From Candidatus Omnitrophota bacterium (GTDB lineage: Bacteria; Omnitrophota; Gorgyraeia; Tantalellales; Tantalellaceae), in NCBI GenBank assembly GCA_015233235.1, contig JADFYD010000001.1, forward strand, positions 43,909 through 88,575: a stretch of DNA of 44,667 nt, read 5' to 3'. Below the pieces are notes generated by a model. That model did no database searches, was not told where the DNA came from, and saw only the letters and a program-made list of their open reading frames with translations. The translations under genes and the position numbers were made by a program. Positions 30,270-44,667 of the stretch are shown here, one piece after another; positions within the stretch are counted from its first letter, which is position 1, and each line of letters begins with the position of its first letter.

Positions 30270-31328
30270 TTACCGACGGAGTTTCGGCGAAACGGTGACT
30301 TTTTTAAGGTAGTTAAGTTCGGTAAGAGCCTTACCCGTACCCAAAACTACCGCCGTTAACGGATCATCGGCTATGTGTACCGGCAAACCAGTCTCTTCCG
30401 AGATAAGCTTATCGATACCGACAAGAAGCGACCCGCCGCCCGCCATTATCAAACCTTTTTCGATGAGGTCCGCAGAGAGTTCGGGCGGAGTCCTCTCAAG
30501 GGTAACACGTACAGCTTCTACTATCTGCGCGATGGGCTCCGACAATGCCTCTCTTATCTCTTCGCTGTTGACCGTGATGGATTTCGGCAGGCCCGCCACA
30601 AGATCACGGCCCCTGACTTCCATAGTGAGTTCCTGCTCCATCGGGTACGCCGAGCCTATACTGATCTTAATGTCTTCGGCTGTCCTTTCCCCTATCATCA
30701 GGTTATACGTTCTTTTCAAATAATTTATGATCGCCGTGTCCAGCTCATCGCCGCCTATCCTTATGGACTTCGCGAAAACTATGCCGGCCAACGATATAAC
30801 GGCCATTTCGGTAGTACCGCCGCCGATATCTATGATCATGTTACCCGAGGGTTCCTGTATCGGAAGCCCTACTCCTATGGCCGCGGCCATGGGCTCTTCT
30901 ATCATGAACACTTCACGCGCGCCGGCATGAAGGGCCGAATCTTTTACGGCTCTGCGTTCAACCTCGGTAATACCGGACGGGACAGCGACAACGATCCTGG
31001 GCCTTACCATCCTTCTCGAGTGATGTACTTTTTTTATAAAGTACCTAAGCATGCTCTCGGTAATGTCGAAATCAGCTATAACGCCGTCTCTCATTGGCCT
31101 TATGGCTACGATGTTACCGGGTGTACGGCCAAGCATCCTTTTCGCCTCTTCCCCGACAGCGAGCACATTGCTTGTCCCCGCTTCGATCGCGACGACCGAA
31201 GGCTCGCACAGAACAATACCTTCATTTTTAACGTAGACCAGCGTCGAAGCGGTACCTAAGTCGATACCCATGTCACTTGAGAACAAACTCGACACGCCGT
31301 CCAGTACCTGTGAGAGAATTTTCATCAT
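30270..31328 (-). CDS. mreB: Rod shape-determining actin homologue MreB
   Basis: 352 aa with [21 protein letters not shown] and GGGSLL motifs intact. Confidence 0.95.
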
Positions 31329-39206: not shown

Positions 39207-39506
39207 TTATCCGCCAAGGCGTGCCGCCATCGACAACAAGACCCCGACCATAAAGTTTTTCAGGAATGAGAGCAGTATGAACGCCAGGATAGGAGAAAAA
39301 TCTATTGAACCCACCTGTAACGGCAGCCTTCTGAACGGAGCGAGCATCGGTTCAGTCACGGAGTATATGACCCGCACGATCTCATTATACGGATCGGCGT
39401 TAACCCAAGAAACAATTATGCGCGCTATAAGAAGCACATAAACCACATTACAGAGCAGTGATACCAAAGCCGCAAGGCTTGAAAATAGTTGTGCCAATAT
39501 AAACAT
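39207..39506 (-). CDS. yggT: YggT family membrane protein
   Basis: ARIIVSWV..DPYN....IY.VTEP.L.PFRR is the YggT signature. I chose the ATG at 39504-39506 (MFILAQ) to avoid overlapping proC. The track ORF extends to 39551. Confidence 0.8.
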   Translation of the reverse strand: MFILAQLFSSLAALVSLLCNVVYVLLIARIIVSWVNADPYNEIVRVIYSVTEPMLAPFRRLPLQVGSIDFSPILAFILLSFLKNFMVGVLLSMAARLGG

Positions 39507-39510
39507 ATAC

Positions 39511-40308
39511 TCACTCCTCTGAAAGCTCTCGCGACCGTTTTTTTGCAGCAAGCACGGCCTCTTCGACGATCACGGAAAAATTACTTTCTTCAAAGATCTT
39601 AAGCGCGGCCTCGGTCGTGCCGCCTTTTGACGTGACTTTTTTGGCCAATTCATGCGGATTCAAATGCTCTTCTTTCATAAGGGTGACAGCTGTGCCGTAC
39701 AATGTTTCAACTACAAGTTTACGCGCGACTTCCTCGCTAAGGCCGGATTTGATACCGGCATCCATCATAGATTTGACGAAATGAAAAAGATACGCGGGTC
39801 CGCTTCCCGAAAGAGCCGTGACAATGTCAAAAAATTCTTCGTCTACCACGACGACTTTTCCGATGCACTGAAACAGTTTTTTTATAAAGGGTTTATTTTT
39901 AACGCCCGGGCCAAATGCGACAGCCGTCATGCTTTTCGAAAAACGCGCGTTCATGTTAGGCATTGCCCTGGCAACCGAAACTTCGCCGCCGAACGCGCCG
40001 GATATTTTATTAATTTTCACGCCGGCCATGATCGAAATGATCGTCTTGCCAGACACTTTGCCTTGCATCTCTTCGCGAAGGGCCGCGAAATCCTGCGGTT
40101 TTATCGCGAGGAGTAAACTGTCTGCCTTTTCCAGTAGTTGGTCGAGATTTACCTCCGCACACCCTATATCGCGGATCGCTCCGCCTGTTTTTTCGGGCAT
40201 CTTATCAAACACAAGGATATCGGAAGCGTTCATCACATGTTTTTTGACGAGCCCTTCCGCAACCGCCGAGCCCATATTACCGCATCCGATTATGCCTAAT
40301 TTTTTCAT
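39511..40308 (-). CDS. proC: Pyrroline-5-carboxylate reductase
   Basis: 265 aa with the MKKLGIIGCGNMGSA Rossmann motif, SGSGPAY and SKGGTTEAAL. Confidence 0.9.
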   Translation of the reverse strand: MKKLGIIGCGNMGSAVAEGLVKKHVMNASDILVFDKMPEKTGGAIRDIGCAEVNLDQLLEKADSLLLAIKPQDFAALREEMQGKVSGKTIISIMAGVKINKISGAFGGEVSVARAMPNMNARFSKSMTAVAFGPGVKNKPFIKKLFQCIGKVVVVDEEFFDIVTALSGSGPAYLFHFVKSMMDAGIKSGLSEEVARKLVVETLYGTAVTLMKEEHLNPHELAKKVTSKGGTTEAALKIFEESNFSVIVEEAVLAAKKRSRELSEE

Positions 40309-40323
40309 TGTAATTTACGTCCC

Positions 40324-41421
40324 TTAAAAATATGAGTCGAAAAAGTCTATCGCTTTAGTGATTAATTTATCAACCGGGTTCTTATCGCCAAGCAGGCCCT
40401 TTTGTTCCTGTTCAAGGATATCAAGCACACCCAGGCAGCCCGTATAAGCGATGCGCTCAATGGGAAGGTTTTCCTCAGGTTTATTTATGCAAAGGGCGGT
40501 CACAACGGGGATATTTATTGATTTCTCGATCTTTTCGGCAACGCCATCCACTCCCCACTCGCAAAGCACGGCGACCTTTTTCACATTTTTCCAGTCCGGG
40601 AAATCCTGCATAAGGGATACTACTTTGTCAAGGCACAAGGTCCCCGGGTCCTCTACTATCCGATCCATATCCTCGGCCCCGAAGGGGAGGACCTTGCAAT
40701 TTTTGAGTAGATTTTCGCTGAAAAGCATTACCTGCATCAATCCTCTATGCGCCATAAGGAAGAGAACACCGTCATGCATATCTTCGGCAGTGAGCACACG
40801 TTTGGCGTTTGCGAGCCCCGAATAAAACGCTTTGCTCCGCGTTAGCCCCGCACCAAAAACGCATTTGTCCAGGTTCTCAATAACCGAGGAATTTATGAGT
40901 ATATTGTCCAGCCGTATGTCAAGTTTAACGCCCGTTAGCCCGAGAGGATTATGTATACCGCCTTCCCCGTCAACAGCATATTCCCTTACACGTTCTTCGA
41001 GTACTTTTTTGCCGGCGGGAAGCTTAAAGATGGCGCCTGTTTTCCGACACTTTGTAATATCGCCATAATTAATCTCCCGGCCATACTTGGACAAAAGAAG
41101 TGTCGCGCCCGACGAAATATTCTCGACCGACGGGGAAGCAGCAGTCACATACACTTCCTTAATATGGCATTTAAGGGCCCTGTTGAATTTTGTAATGACC
41201 TCGGCGATGCTTTCGGTGGCACCATCAAGATCTTTCACCACACCGTTCGGTATGGCATTAGAATGTACCATGCAGAAATCCAAAAGCTCAAAGTTCCCCT
41301 TCTTCCGCCATGAAGCGGCCGCTGCGGCGATAAAATCGGTCTTAAAATCAAGAACGGCGAACACTTTATTAGTTTTGCTCAACAATCTCATATCTCTCCC
41401 GCCATTTGTTGTATACGTCAT
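40324..41421 (-). CDS. ftsA: FtsA-like actin-fold protein with degenerate nucleotide-binding motifs
   Basis: It aligns with FtsA over the 1A/1C/2A region (GVVKDLDGATESI, IHNPLGLTGVKLD, ENLDKCVFGAGL) and lies directly after ftsQ. An alternative start is the ATG at 41389-41391, which has a GGGAGAG RBS. Confidence 0.7.
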   Translation of the reverse strand: MTYTTNGGRDMRLLSKTNKVFAVLDFKTDFIAAAAASWRKKGNFELLDFCMVHSNAIPNGVVKDLDGATESIAEVITKFNRALKCHIKEVYVTAASPSVENISSGATLLLSKYGREINYGDITKCRKTGAIFKLPAGKKVLEERVREYAVDGEGGIHNPLGLTGVKLDIRLDNILINSSVIENLDKCVFGAGLTRSKAFYSGLANAKRVLTAEDMHDGVLFLMAHRGLMQVMLFSENLLKNCKVLPFGAEDMDRIVEDPGTLCLDKVVSLMQDFPDWKNVKKVAVLCEWGVDGVAEKIEKSINIPVVTALCINKPEENLPIERIAYTGCLGVLDILEQEQKGLLGDKNPVDKLITKAIDFFDSYF

Positions 41422-42212
41422 TTTTTAGGCGCGATAACTATCTTTTCGAACCGGAGATCAATATACTCGATACTTTCGCTGTTGATCTTCGGATCCTTTA
41501 GTATTTCTTCCAGCATCCCGATCTTCGATTCAAAATCGGCAAGTCTTATTTTAACAGATATGCCCGATATTTTTAAAACAATATTTTCCCGGCCGCTTAC
41601 ATCGATCGACTCGACAAACCCTTTACCCCTGAACTGCACCCTTCTCACTATGTCCAGAAGGTCAAGAGCTCCCATAAGGGCCTGGGACCTGACTTTCTCA
41701 CCGACCGACGGTGGCCTAGATAAATTCACACCCAATATTTTTACGAGACCTTTTTTACTGCAGGTTTTATCAAGGGCTATGCCCTCATCATCTATCGCTA
41801 TACCGTCTCCGTAGTTTATCACTGCCGCCGGTATACGCGAAACGATGTCCACATGCAAAACGTCCGGCATGACCCTTTTAACGATAACGTCCTTCGAATC
41901 GGGATAATCCTTGATTATCGCGTTCCCGATCTGTTTCAGGTCGACTGTAAAGATATTCGTCCCGGCATATTCGCTGCGGAGTTTTTCCAGACGCGCCGCA
42001 GTCAAATCACCGCAGGATTTATTGACAACGACCTGTTTAATTGCGAAATAATCCGAAAACATGAGGAAATTCTTGAACGCCAACACACCACCCGCAAGAA
42101 ACACCATCACAATGATACAGAAAAGAACGGCCCTGCCGTCCACCATAGACAGAAGGTCGAAGGTCGCGCCTCGCTCCGCGTTTTTCTTATTCGGATTTTT
42201 TTTACGTGCCAC
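41418..42212 (-). CDS. ftsQ: Cell division protein FtsQ (POTRA domain)
   Basis: 264 aa with an N-terminal TM helix then a POTRA-like segment (FAIKQVVVN...). It has a GTG start with an AGGAGAAG RBS and sits in the ddl-ftsQ-ftsA order. Confidence 0.8.
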   Translation of the reverse strand: MARKKNPNKKNAERGATFDLLSMVDGRAVLFCIIVMVFLAGGVLAFKNFLMFSDYFAIKQVVVNKSCGDLTAARLEKLRSEYAGTNIFTVDLKQIGNAIIKDYPDSKDVIVKRVMPDVLHVDIVSRIPAAVINYGDGIAIDDEGIALDKTCSKKGLVKILGVNLSRPPSVGEKVRSQALMGALDLLDIVRRVQFRGKGFVESIDVSGRENIVLKISGISVKIRLADFESKIGMLEEILKDPKINSESIEYIDLRFEKIVIAPKK

Positions 42213-43176
42213 GTTCTTCTCCTAGGCTACCATGGGGATATTCACGCGCGCCACTCTCGTCAATCGCCATGATCAAGATCTTTCGGCATAACTCGGGAAA
42301 AGTTATACCTGCGGCCTTTGCCGCCATCGGTAAAAGGCTTTTCTCCGTGAACCCGGGAATGGTGTTCACTTCGAGAACATACATATCGTTCTTGTCGTCA
42401 AGCCTTATATCTACCCGGGACATATGTTTACAACCCAGCGCCTTATGGGCACGGATAGCAAGGTCCTGGGCTTTCGCGGAAATCGATCCGTCAAGTTGCG
42501 CCGGGACGATATATTTTGTCTTACCGCTTAAATACTTCGAGTGAAAATCATAGTACCCATCTTCAGGCACGATCTCAACGACAGGTAAAGCTTTTTCATC
42601 AAGAATGCCCACGGTAAGCTCCCTGCCACCGATATATTCCTCGACAAGCGCGTCACCGTCATAAGCACGCGTTGCAAGGACCGCTTTTACCGCGTCATCT
42701 TTTGTTTCACAAATAGCTATGCCAATGCTGGAACCTTCAAACTGTGGTTTAACAACACACGGTACGTTGATATTCCGCGCGTCGACTTTTTCGTTCCTTT
42801 TTACGACAACAAAACCCGGAGTACTGACTGATCGTTCCACAAACTTATATTTCGACCGTATCTTATCCAGTGCCAGATTTGAAGCCGTTTTGTCGGAACC
42901 GGTGAATATGATATTGTTTTCTTTCAACAACCCCTGTATGAACCCATCTTCACCATACTTGCCGTGTAAGGCTAAAAATGCGAGATCTATGCCCAAAGAA
43001 CCGATCTTCCCGAAACTTTCTTCGGTAAGATCGACGAACTTCACATCGACCCCCGCCCCCTTCAAAGCGTTAAATACAGCCGCGCCGCTTTTCAGGCTTA
43101 CTTCTCTTTCGGTCGAAGCGCCGCCTGCCAAAACAGCGATCTTGTATTGTTTTAGTCTGTCCATACCGTGCATCAT
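42202..43176 (-). CDS. ddl: D-alanine--D-alanine ligase
   Basis: 324 aa ATP-grasp protein: IAVLAGG.S.EREVSL.SG, HG..GEDG..QG, VLEVNT.PG.T. Confidence 0.95.
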   Translation of the reverse strand: MMHGMDRLKQYKIAVLAGGASTEREVSLKSGAAVFNALKGAGVDVKFVDLTEESFGKIGSLGIDLAFLALHGKYGEDGFIQGLLKENNIIFTGSDKTASNLALDKIRSKYKFVERSVSTPGFVVVKRNEKVDARNINVPCVVKPQFEGSSIGIAICETKDDAVKAVLATRAYDGDALVEEYIGGRELTVGILDEKALPVVEIVPEDGYYDFHSKYLSGKTKYIVPAQLDGSISAKAQDLAIRAHKALGCKHMSRVDIRLDDKNDMYVLEVNTIPGFTEKSLLPMAAKAAGITFPELCRKILIMAIDESGAREYPHGSLGEERGT

Positions 43177-44667
43177 AATACCTCTATCTCAAGTTCCAGG
43201 TCTACATCAAATTTTTCGTTCACTTTTTCTTTTATGGTCTTTATGAGAGCCCTGATGTCTTTTGAAGTCGCGCCGCCCGAGTTCACGATAAAATTAGCAT
43301 GCTTTTCGGAAACAACCGCGCCTCCTATTTTGAGGCCCTTAAGCCCTGCCATATCGATCAACTGTCCGGTTTTAAGAACGCCAGTTCCCGGATTTTTGAA
43401 AACACAGCCCAGGGTCAGGTCATCCAGCGGCTGCTTCAGTATTTTTTCCGACATAAATTCCTTGATCCTCCCGGAAACCGCATCGGAGGATGACTCTTCA
43501 AGGTTAAATACGGCTTCGAGCACGATCCAGCTTTCCGGGATAGACGATACTCTGTAGGAAAAATTAAGATCTTTTTTGTTGACCACTCTTACGGCACCCT
43601 CACCGTCCACGACTTTGAGCGAGATCAGCTTGTCCGATATCGTGACTTTATATCCGGCATTACCTTCTATCGCCCCGCCGACCGTCCCGGGGATACCTAC
43701 CATTCCTTCAAAACCCGAAAGACCCGCCTTCGCGGATTCGGCGATAAGTTTGCCGAGCGGAGTCCCCGCCCCGGCGGTCAAACAATTTCCATTTATCCTT
43801 ACAAAATTAAAATCAGGCGCCGATAATTTAACAAAAACCATATTCGTAAAACTGTCCGAAAAAAGAATATTCGAACCAGCCCCAACTATTTTAAAGCCGA
43901 TGTCTTCTTCCCTCGCCGTCTCGACAAACGACATGAGTTCCGCAGAAGATGACGGTTCGTACCACGCTGCAGCTTCGCCTCCTATCCCGATCGAACTATG
44001 CTTCCCCAAAGGCTCGTTAAAACATACTTTACCGCCGCTTTTAGAGGAAAGCTCCGAAAGAAGGCCTTTTACAAGATCACCCGTCAAGTTGGACAATTTC
44101 ATTTTCGTATTGGTATTTTTTTCTTCGATCGCCTTGGCGATGCCACCGGCAATAAGGTTAATATCACCGGCCGCCATCAAAATCACCGTATCGCCGGGTT
44201 CGGCGGTGCTCACGACAAATTCGACGACGGAATTTTTGCGCATGAATTCCGCGCGTAAAAAACGCGCCTTGTCGATCTTGTCATAAACATACTTCGCGTC
44301 CTTGCCTCCGAACGGGAGCTCGTCTGCGGCGTAAATATCGGTCAAAGTCAAGACATCCGCTCCATAGAAACATTCGGCAAACTCGTCCGCGAGGTCATTC
44401 GTCCGGGTGTATCTGTGAGGCTGGAACACCACAATAAGTTTTCCGCTTCCTACATAAGAACGCGCCGCATGGATCACTGCCTTGATCTCGGTGGGATGAT
44501 GCGCGTAATCTTCGAAAATATCTATCCCGCCGGCGGTATACAGACGATAAAAACGCCGTTTCACCGTTTTAAACACTTCCACGGCATTTTGTATGCCCTT
44601 AAAATCAAGACCCATTTCCAGAGCAAGGCCGCACGCGGCCACAAGGTTCATGACATTGTGCCGCCCG
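43173..44667 (-). CDS. MurC (C-terminal part; 5' end outside the window) fused in frame to MurB
   Basis: The reading frame is open to the window edge (..GRHNVMNLVAA.. is the MurC mid-domain). It continues with DYAHHPTEI and FQPHRYTRT (MurC C-domain), then an ~15-aa linker, then full-length MurB (GIGGEA, VGAGSNIL, GIPGTVGGA, FKNP, SEKHANFIVN). There is no stop codon between the two parts. Confidence 0.85.
   Translation of the reverse strand, partial: GRHNVMNLVAACGLALEMGLDFKGIQNAVEVFKTVKRRFYRLYTAGGIDIFEDYAHHPTEIKAVIHAARSYVGSGKLIVVFQPHRYTRTNDLADEFAECFYGADVLTLTDIYAADELPFGGKDAKYVYDKIDKARFLRAEFMRKNSVVEFVVSTAEPGDTVILMAAGDINLIAGGIAKAIEEKNTNTKMKLSNLTGDLVKGLLSELSSKSGGKVCFNEPLGKHSSIGIGGEAAAWYEPSSSAELMSFVETAREEDIGFKIVGAGSNILFSDSFTNMVFVKLSAPDFNFVRINGNCLTAGAGTPLGKLIAESAKAGLSGFEGMVGIPGTVGGAIEGNAGYKVTISDKLISLKVVDGEGAVRVVNKKDLNFSYRVSSIPESWIVLEAVFNLEESSSDAVSGRIKEFMSEKILKQPLDDLTLGCVFKNPGTGVLKTGQLIDMAGLKGLKIGGAVVSEKHANFIVNSGGATSKDIRALIKTIKEKVNEKFDVDLELEIEVL

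Follow-up and report, generated by a model that had tools for sequence, protein, structure and literature searches.

The window analysed here is a 44,667-nucleotide stretch of contig JADFYD010000001.1 (positions 43,909 to 88,575; assembly GCA_015233235.1) from an uncultured Candidatus Omnitrophota bacterium, whose assembly totals 1.59 Mb in 175 contigs and is 78% complete. It carries part of a division and cell wall (dcw) cluster in which the gene directly downstream of ftsQ is ftsA (Table 1). The ftsA open reading frame (ORF) is intact and encodes 365 amino acids (aa) when counted from the first ATG; this start codon and the end of ftsQ share 4 bp. The publicly called gene uses an alternative start at 41391 (M11) and encodes 355 aa. 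A preliminary description of the locus had identified the product as a short FtsA homologue in which all three nucleotide-binding motifs are degenerate, and had suggested that it is a nucleotide-independent scaffold. We find that the gene is an FtsA orthologue by descent, position, fold and 1C insert, that it encodes neither subdomain 2B nor recognisable ATP-binding motifs, and that its genome yields no match to FtsZ.

Table 1. Features of the ftsA locus, in window coordinates
Feature	Coordinates	Strand	Remarks
ftsA orthologue lacking 2B, with degenerate motifs	40324..41421	-	Intact ORF; profiles, AlphaFold2 (AF2) model, Foldseek
Phosphate-1 site	41332..41355	-	VLDFKTDF, residues 23-30; canonical GL(D/E)IG(T/S)xK
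Phosphate-2 site	40729..40764	-	LFLMAHRGLMQV, residues 220-231; canonical VVDIGGGTxDI
Adenosine-motif site	40546..40572	-	AVLCEWGVD, residues 284-292; canonical VLTGGxxxxE
Stub in place of 2B	40594..40683	-	Two short helices; low conservation; lower predicted local distance difference test (pLDDT) score
1C (SHS2) subdomain	40894..41130	-	Among the best conserved parts; LLSKYGRE (S-x-YGR invariant in the family) and GL(E/T)GVKL motifs
C-terminal amphipathic helix	40327..40374	-	VDKLITKAIDFFDSYF; (D/E)YF end kept nearly phylum-wide
ftsQ	41418..42212	-	POTRA_1 and FtsQ_DivIB_C domains; directly upstream of ftsA
ddl and murC-murB fusion	42202..44666	-	Upstream dcw genes; murC interrupted by the contig end
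proC and yggT	39207..40308	-	Occupy the usual ftsZ slot after ftsA

Profile searches recognise the protein as FtsA-like without admitting it to the curated family. The SHS2_FTSA domain (PF02491), with a score of 37.6 bits (cut-off 25.4), is the sole FtsA-type Pfam domain found in the protein; PF14450 and PF11104 (PilM_2) gave no match in the Pfam scan. The TIGR01174 ftsA profile matches with an E-value of 1.5e-35, but the score of 123 bits lies below the equivalog cut-off of 175.85 and the match is limited to profile positions 2-231 of 371. The protein fails both curated FtsA sequence cut-offs, TIGR01174 and PF14450. When the PDB was searched with phmmer, residues 19-249 matched Vibrio and E. 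coli FtsA (7Q6D and 7Q6F) at E ∼1e-17. An AF2 model built with 27 orthologues as input has a mean pLDDT of 87 and a predicted template modelling (TM) score of 0.85, and FtsA structures make up all 19 of its top Foldseek matches (E 1e-27 to 1e-20, TM 0.68-0.76). Structures of PilM come next, their E-values some nine orders of magnitude weaker, and a separate PilM gene (159 bits) lies on another contig (C51) of the same genome. With the SHS2 domain, the position after ftsQ and Foldseek matches reaching 1e-27, the earlier assignment to FtsA is secure. In the gene tree the protein falls in a well-supported clade of 15 members inside Omnitrophota FtsA, and this clade of 2B-less proteins branches from within the full-length FtsAs of the phylum, E. 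coli serving as the outgroup. Such an ftsA occurs in a single copy per genome. A second, canonical ftsA, which would make the window gene a diverged duplicate, was found neither in the gene's own 78%-complete assembly nor in 24 family relatives, most of them more than 90% complete. The other actin-fold matches in the genome are MreB, PilM, two volactin-family genes and a weak DnaK-sized match that was left unchecked.

The nucleotide-binding sites were located by a HMMER alignment and by two MAFFT alignments with E. coli FtsA (NC_000913) and dozens of relatives, which are concordant. In full-ORF numbering, E. coli E14-I-G16-T17-A-K19 of phosphate-1 aligns to D25-F-K27-T28-D-F30, with Gly replaced by Lys and Lys by Phe. 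E. coli D210-I-G-G-G-T215-M-D217 of phosphate-2 aligns to M223-A-H-R-G-L228-M-Q230, with Asp replaced by Met and the glycine loop gone, and T-G336-G337-A of the adenosine motif aligns to L-C287-E288-W. The remaining two reading frames over these sites contain stops and no hidden motif. Because the three alignments agree and the other frames are closed and motif-free, the motifs are truly replaced, not shifted or frameshifted; a frameshift or assembly artefact at these sites is rejected, and DFKTDF, LMAHRGLMQ and LCEWGV lie exactly on the phosphate-1, phosphate-2 and adenosine sites to which they had been assigned. The MreB encoded in the window (30270-31328, 505 bits) retains its motifs, including AGGGS, as had also been stated. 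Since MreB is canonical and GC content is uniform along the window at 0.43-0.50, a compositional or foreign-island cause was likewise rejected.

The shortness of the protein, put at 50-70 aa in the preliminary description, is real, and the missing ∼50 aa correspond to the entire 2B subdomain. The segment replaced is E. coli FtsA 232-300, that is, 2B; this region measures 19-24 residues in the ∼350-aa relatives, including the window protein, versus 66-69 in E. coli and full-length FtsAs. Alignments show that 2B is absent in all ∼45 orthologues of the family. A profile search of 1.84 billion representative proteins returned a few dozen clusters that match from end to end, with lengths of 340-360 aa, and next below them came canonical FtsAs of at least 400 aa, most of which match as two stretches divided at 2B. 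In actin-fold proteins, 2B makes one side of the adenine pocket. In FtsA, it is also established that 2B binds the C-terminal peptide of FtsZ (PDB 4A2A title). The longitudinal filament contact joins 2A to 2B, lateral contacts are made through 1C, and the FtsN tail lies in the 1A-1C cleft (Nierhaus preprint, 10.1101/2021.11.08.467742).

Other parts of the protein are conserved in the family. Among 27 orthologues, 19 columns are invariant and a further 37 near-invariant, and the mean consensus frequency is highest in mid-1A (0.72) and 1C (0.69), dropping to its minimum of 0.39 in the 2B stub. Two motifs of 1C, LLSKYGRE and GLEGVKL, proved specific enough to recover 32 loci when 185,579 species genomes were searched. 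At 73 of 98 conserved columns the window protein matches its family, including nearly all of those in 1C and in the C-terminal 1A helix. Several of its 25 departures group at or beside the phosphate-2 and adenosine sites (D217G, T219M, E220Q, G277C, G279W and G299A), and another, K341D, falls in the C-terminal helix. For the last 15 residues the hydrophobic moment is 0.57, which equals that of the E. coli FtsA membrane-targeting helix and is reached by 0.9% of shuffled sequences; the AF2 model places a helix at 339-354, preceded by a low-confidence linker. The amphipathic helix proposed in the preliminary description is therefore borne out in its shape, and membrane binding is predicted from it. 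The family holds its length of ∼350 aa across many genera, and the 1A-1C-2A core, the 1C domain and the C-terminal helix appear, from their sequence conservation, to be kept under selection.

The arrangement of neighbouring genes bears directly on FtsZ. The locus reads murC/murB fusion-ddl-ftsQ-ftsA-proC-yggT-DUF167-MTAP-ileS, and genes of the yggS-proC-yggT type commonly lie just downstream of ftsZ in many bacteria. In all 32 related loci dcw genes lie upstream of ftsA, and the synteny and the association with ftsQ, mur genes and ddl are kept across about 30 genera. Downstream of ftsA, proC was found in 20 of these loci, mostly within ∼100-700 bp and once at ∼3 kb. None of the 32 loci, 20 of which could be read through to proC, contains a match to FtsZ, and the present ftsA-proC-yggT arrangement has the appearance of an older ftsA-ftsZ-...-proC-yggT order from which ftsZ was cleanly removed. 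The murC-murB fusion (43173-44666, reverse strand) joins the MurC C-terminal ligase domain, the MurB FAD-binding domain and MurB_C in one frame. It matches in the related loci as well and looks like a family trait, and the same fusion is visible in Verrucomicrobium spinosum as a shared locus tag (PMC12283558).

Searches beyond the locus gave the same result. Neither PF00091 nor TIGR00065 has a match in the gene's own genome, TIGR00065 finds nothing over its cut-off in 41 relatives, and it has no match at E ≤ 1e-3 in 151 Omnitrophota genomes, of which 131 have a completeness of 90% or more. Applied to 14 control genomes, this model matched 13, three archaea included. FtsA, on the other hand, is present in 146 of the 151 genomes (∼97%), the other five having no match at E ≤ 1e-22. 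MinC and SepF were not found among five genomes searched, nor was ZapA among 31. Two SEDS genes and FtsK are present, and mreBCD-pbp2-rodA lies inside the window. The loss of FtsZ from Omnitrophota had already been noted, Pende 2021 (PMC8178401) listing Omnitrophica as FtsZ-less, but published accounts disagree. In Rivas-Marin 2016 and Henriques 2025 (PMC5147048, PMC12283558) the phylum is taken to be FtsZ-positive or to possess a conserved dcw cluster, a 2025 review gives planctomycetes as the only free-living FtsZ-less bacteria (PMC12673574), and FtsZ, FtsA and MreB go unmentioned in the main Omnitrophota genomics paper, Seymour 2023 (PMC10066038).

Some further cytoskeletal and division genes were observed in these genomes. 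The second SEDS gene, an FtsW candidate outside the window (contig C54:2018-2937), matches as two pieces in different frames, with open frames of 171 and 211 aa; relatives have two intact SEDS genes, which suggests a frameshift or assembly error in this metagenome-assembled genome (MAG). A weak tubulin-superfamily match occurs in three family genomes (L006 1222-2517 in G022, L007 in G015 and L008 in G002), where the proteins, of 405-437 aa, begin with a lysine-rich tail, contain a GGGTGSG loop and end in a TubZ-like domain. These were considered as a hidden FtsZ and rejected, being sporadic (3 of 41 genomes), absent from the window's own genome and TubZ-type in their C-terminal domain. Two tandem genes of the actin-like volactin family (PF25216, 281 and 264 bits) lie outside the window on contig C93 (5518-6474 and 7040-7996; L003 and L004). 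The sole control genome with a volactin match is Haloferax volcanii, and one of 60 other Omnitrophota genomes sampled has one; the pair may be horizontally acquired cytoskeletal genes or a binning contaminant. With only 2 of 61 genomes positive, volactin was rejected as a phylum-wide substitute for FtsZ.

The inspection of orthologues for the same substitutions, recommended in the preliminary description, showed that the window protein is the extreme of an erosion seen across its family and phylum. An alignment of 88 Omnitrophota FtsAs from 40-odd families was examined. The 2B-less form occurs in families f1, f9, f18 and f19, which make up one clade with 93% support, and also in f8, f14, f29 and f38, the last of which belongs to a different class. 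The stub measures either 17-19 or 5-8 residues. The gene tree gives five state changes for 2B, and its well-supported branches are compatible with one; the two stub sizes and the presence of a 2B-less family in another class argue for at least two loss events. Degeneration of the motifs follows a partly different distribution. Family f22 (L073, L075, L080 and L087) has kept 2B and lost all three motifs, which read DISED, ISYSAT and AGD, and f35 (L109-L115, of another class) keeps 2B and has the phosphate-1 Asp replaced by Tyr in V-I-Y-I-G-T-R-K, its allies likewise reading YIGTRK. Since f22 and f35 lose motifs while keeping 2B, erosion of the ATP motifs appears from these sequences to be patchy, partly independent of 2B and to have arisen independently several times in the phylum. 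The DxGGG[ST] loop is found in 0 of the 88 Omnitrophota FtsAs versus 37 of 94 long representatives, the latter being a biased control taken from the search with the family profile. Within its own family, no member is more degenerate or faster evolving than the window protein, which has the lowest mean identity (35% versus 47% among the others).

Taken together, these data lead us to favour, with moderate confidence, the view that the window protein works as an adaptor for an FtsQ/FtsW-type divisome, anchored in the membrane, independent of FtsZ and probably free of nucleotide. The C-terminal helix would hold the protein on the cytoplasmic face of the membrane, and the 1A/1C surface would serve as the adaptor or activator contact to the remaining divisome, namely FtsQ, FtsW with its presumed PBP partner, and FtsK. 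In model FtsA, the 1A/1C face binds the FtsN tail and possibly FtsQ (Nierhaus preprint, 10.1101/2021.11.08.467742). Such an adaptor would work without FtsZ, ATP or actin-like longitudinal polymerisation: with FtsZ gone, the tethering role and the 2B contact would have become obsolete, and the conserved 1A/1C face and membrane helix would remain. Canonical protofilaments are unlikely because the 2A-2B contact is missing; lateral contacts through 1C are possible. The lack of ATP binding, the binding to membrane and the divisome partners are all things that we infer. The nucleotide-independent scaffold of the preliminary description remains the best reading and is supported, as judged from sequence, but that interpretation is incomplete without the loss of 2B, the absence of FtsZ and the family- and phylum-wide erosion.

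Several observations weigh against this interpretation. The genome is only 78% complete. The C-terminal helix of the window protein has a net charge of about -1, whereas those of its orthologues and of E. coli are cationic, so that this acidic tail may have only low affinity for the membrane. No terminal branch in the clade is longer than that of the window copy (1.23, versus 0.19-0.99 for the others), and its relative-to-neighbours ratio is 0.75, as compared to 0.83-0.96 for ddl, ftsQ, proC, MTAP, ileS and murCB, which means that the relative divergence of ftsA exceeds that of the genes around it. Partly relaxed selection would yield the same rate pattern, and since the nearest homologue is only ∼40% identical, synonymous sites are saturated for a comparison of nonsynonymous and synonymous rates (dN/dS). 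Finally, f18, f19 and f38 are without 2B yet keep near-canonical DIGSSK and GG, so the loss of 2B alone need not mean the loss of nucleotide binding.

One alternative is that the protein still accommodates a nucleotide, or some other phosphorylated ligand, by non-canonical contacts and acts as a regulated switch, not a passive scaffold. D25 and T28 of phosphate-1 and G227 of phosphate-2 are retained, DxG[SC] and D-I-x-x-D-x-T-E are kept in many family members, and PilM, a close structural relative whose phosphate-2 motif is of the DIGxxxT type, binds ATP. However, the phosphate-2 Asp, three of four phosphate-loop glycines and both adenosine glycines have become bulky or charged residues (M, K, H, R, C, E and W) and the adenine pocket is without its 2B wall, and we regard ligand binding as unlikely. 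Another alternative is that the protein has taken on a role outside division, perhaps serving a different envelope machine as a cytoplasmic adaptor in the manner of PilM, in which case its place in the dcw cluster would be historical. The 1C architecture and its peptide-binding cleft are common to FtsA and PilM, and the invariant LLSKYGRE of 1C is specific to the family, with no counterpart in canonical FtsA. A bona fide PilM is separately encoded in the genome, though, the C-terminal membrane helix is a trait of FtsA and not of PilM, and the synteny, with the ftsQ overlap and mur/ddl association, is strict over about 30 genera; the prospects of this explanation are slim.

Slimmer still is the chance that the gene is a decaying relic, FtsA having become dispensable after the loss of FtsZ and drifting to loss as in Planctomycetota and Chlamydiota. 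No family member has diverged further than the window copy, whose branch is the longest, which has accelerated beyond the genes around it and whose tail is acidic, and five of the 151 Omnitrophota genomes have no FtsA match. Arguing against decay are the intact ORF with its operon-coupled start, a pLDDT of 87 despite a shallow alignment, agreement at 73 of 98 family-conserved columns, and the length and synteny kept in many genera. It is conceivable, lastly, that FtsZ is present and was missed, through incomplete MAGs or extreme divergence, and that FtsA binds it via a different surface. The incompleteness of the genome and the TubZ-like protein of three family genomes would be in keeping with this, as would the report of FtsZ in 'Omnitrophica bacterium OLB16' by Rivas-Marin 2016. 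Against it stand the 151 genomes without a match under a model that finds archaeal FtsZs in the controls, the lack of ftsZ from its conserved slot in all 32 related loci, 20 of them read through to proC, the failure to find MinC, SepF and ZapA in the genomes searched for them, the sporadic occurrence of the TubZ-like genes, none of which is in the window's own genome, and the concurring survey of Pende 2021 (PMC8178401); we give this explanation very little credence.

Model FtsA has two linked jobs, as the membrane tether of FtsZ and as a signal to the late divisome (FtsN, FtsQLB and FtsWI), which are hard to separate genetically because each is essential and each has been connected with ATP binding and the state of the polymer. 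In Omnitrophota, nature supplies a separation-of-function series, with no FtsZ found, FtsA in ∼97% of genomes, and 2B and the ATP motifs each either present or absent; the window protein, which has lost both 2B and all three motifs, is its most reduced form. Such a series could reveal activities of FtsA that are independent of FtsZ and of nucleotide. We tentatively put forward the hypothesis, which we would rate at somewhat below even, that a minimal Omnitrophota FtsA of 1A, 1C, 2A and the membrane helix organises FtsQ/FtsW-type septal peptidoglycan synthesis without FtsZ, ATP or longitudinal filaments. If that is true, nucleotide binding and 2B in ordinary bacteria would be needed chiefly for the half of FtsA's work that is coupled to FtsZ, and the half mediated by 1C would be an autonomous, older module. 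The findings also bear on reviews of the PVC (Planctomycetes, Verrucomicrobia and Chlamydiae) bacteria in which Omnitrophota appear as FtsZ-positive or with a conserved dcw cluster and planctomycetes as the only free-living FtsZ-less bacteria (PMC5147048, PMC12283558, PMC12673574).

Among known systems, the closest is canonical FtsA from E. coli, Vibrio maritimus, Thermotoga maritima and S. aureus (7Q6D, 7Q6F, 4A2A, 1E4G and 3WQT), with which the window protein shares the dcw position after ftsQ, the 1A-1C-2A core (Foldseek E 1e-27, TM ∼0.74), the SHS2 insert of 1C and a C-terminal amphipathic helix with an aromatic end. Unlike canonical FtsA, it is without 2B and PF14450, scores below the TIGR01174 cut-off, has its three motifs replaced and an invariant LLSKYGRE in 1C, and has no FtsZ partner in its genome. 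The full-length FtsAs of other Omnitrophota families likewise belong to an FtsZ-less phylum, carry the (D/E)YF helix and are without the GGG loop in phosphate-2; they differ in that 2B is kept (66-78 residues) and most retain DIGSSK and GG. E. coli FtsA* (R286W) and similar hypermorphs have a weaker 2B-mediated self-contact and activate the late divisome more readily. By analogy, the 2B-less FtsA resembles a permanent FtsA*-like state, although FtsA* still binds FtsZ and ATP and has its 2B fold.

PilM, the type IV pilus platform protein (5EOU, 2YCH), is the next-best Foldseek match after FtsA (E ∼1e-18) and is a static adaptor with an actin fold and a 1C subdomain that takes the PilN tail in its 1A-1C cleft; it differs from the window protein in keeping 2B, binding ATP, having no C-terminal membrane helix and belonging to a pil operon. 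No GspL/EpsL structure is among the top 50 Foldseek matches of the window model. The cytoplasmic domain of GspL/EpsL, from type II secretion, is a nucleotide-free, membrane-associated adaptor, and was reportedly described by Abendroth et al. in 2004 as actin-like with three subdomains, one of them SHS2-like, and with the lobe equivalent to 2B missing. It would represent the same end state as the window FtsA, reached independently from an unrelated descent and context and with a transmembrane segment as its anchor. Planctomycetota and Chlamydiota are PVC lineages that divide without FtsZ and keep genes of the FtsQ, FtsK, FtsW and FtsI type; they have also lost FtsA (PMC8178401, PMC12283558), whereas Omnitrophota keep it in 146 of 151 genomes.

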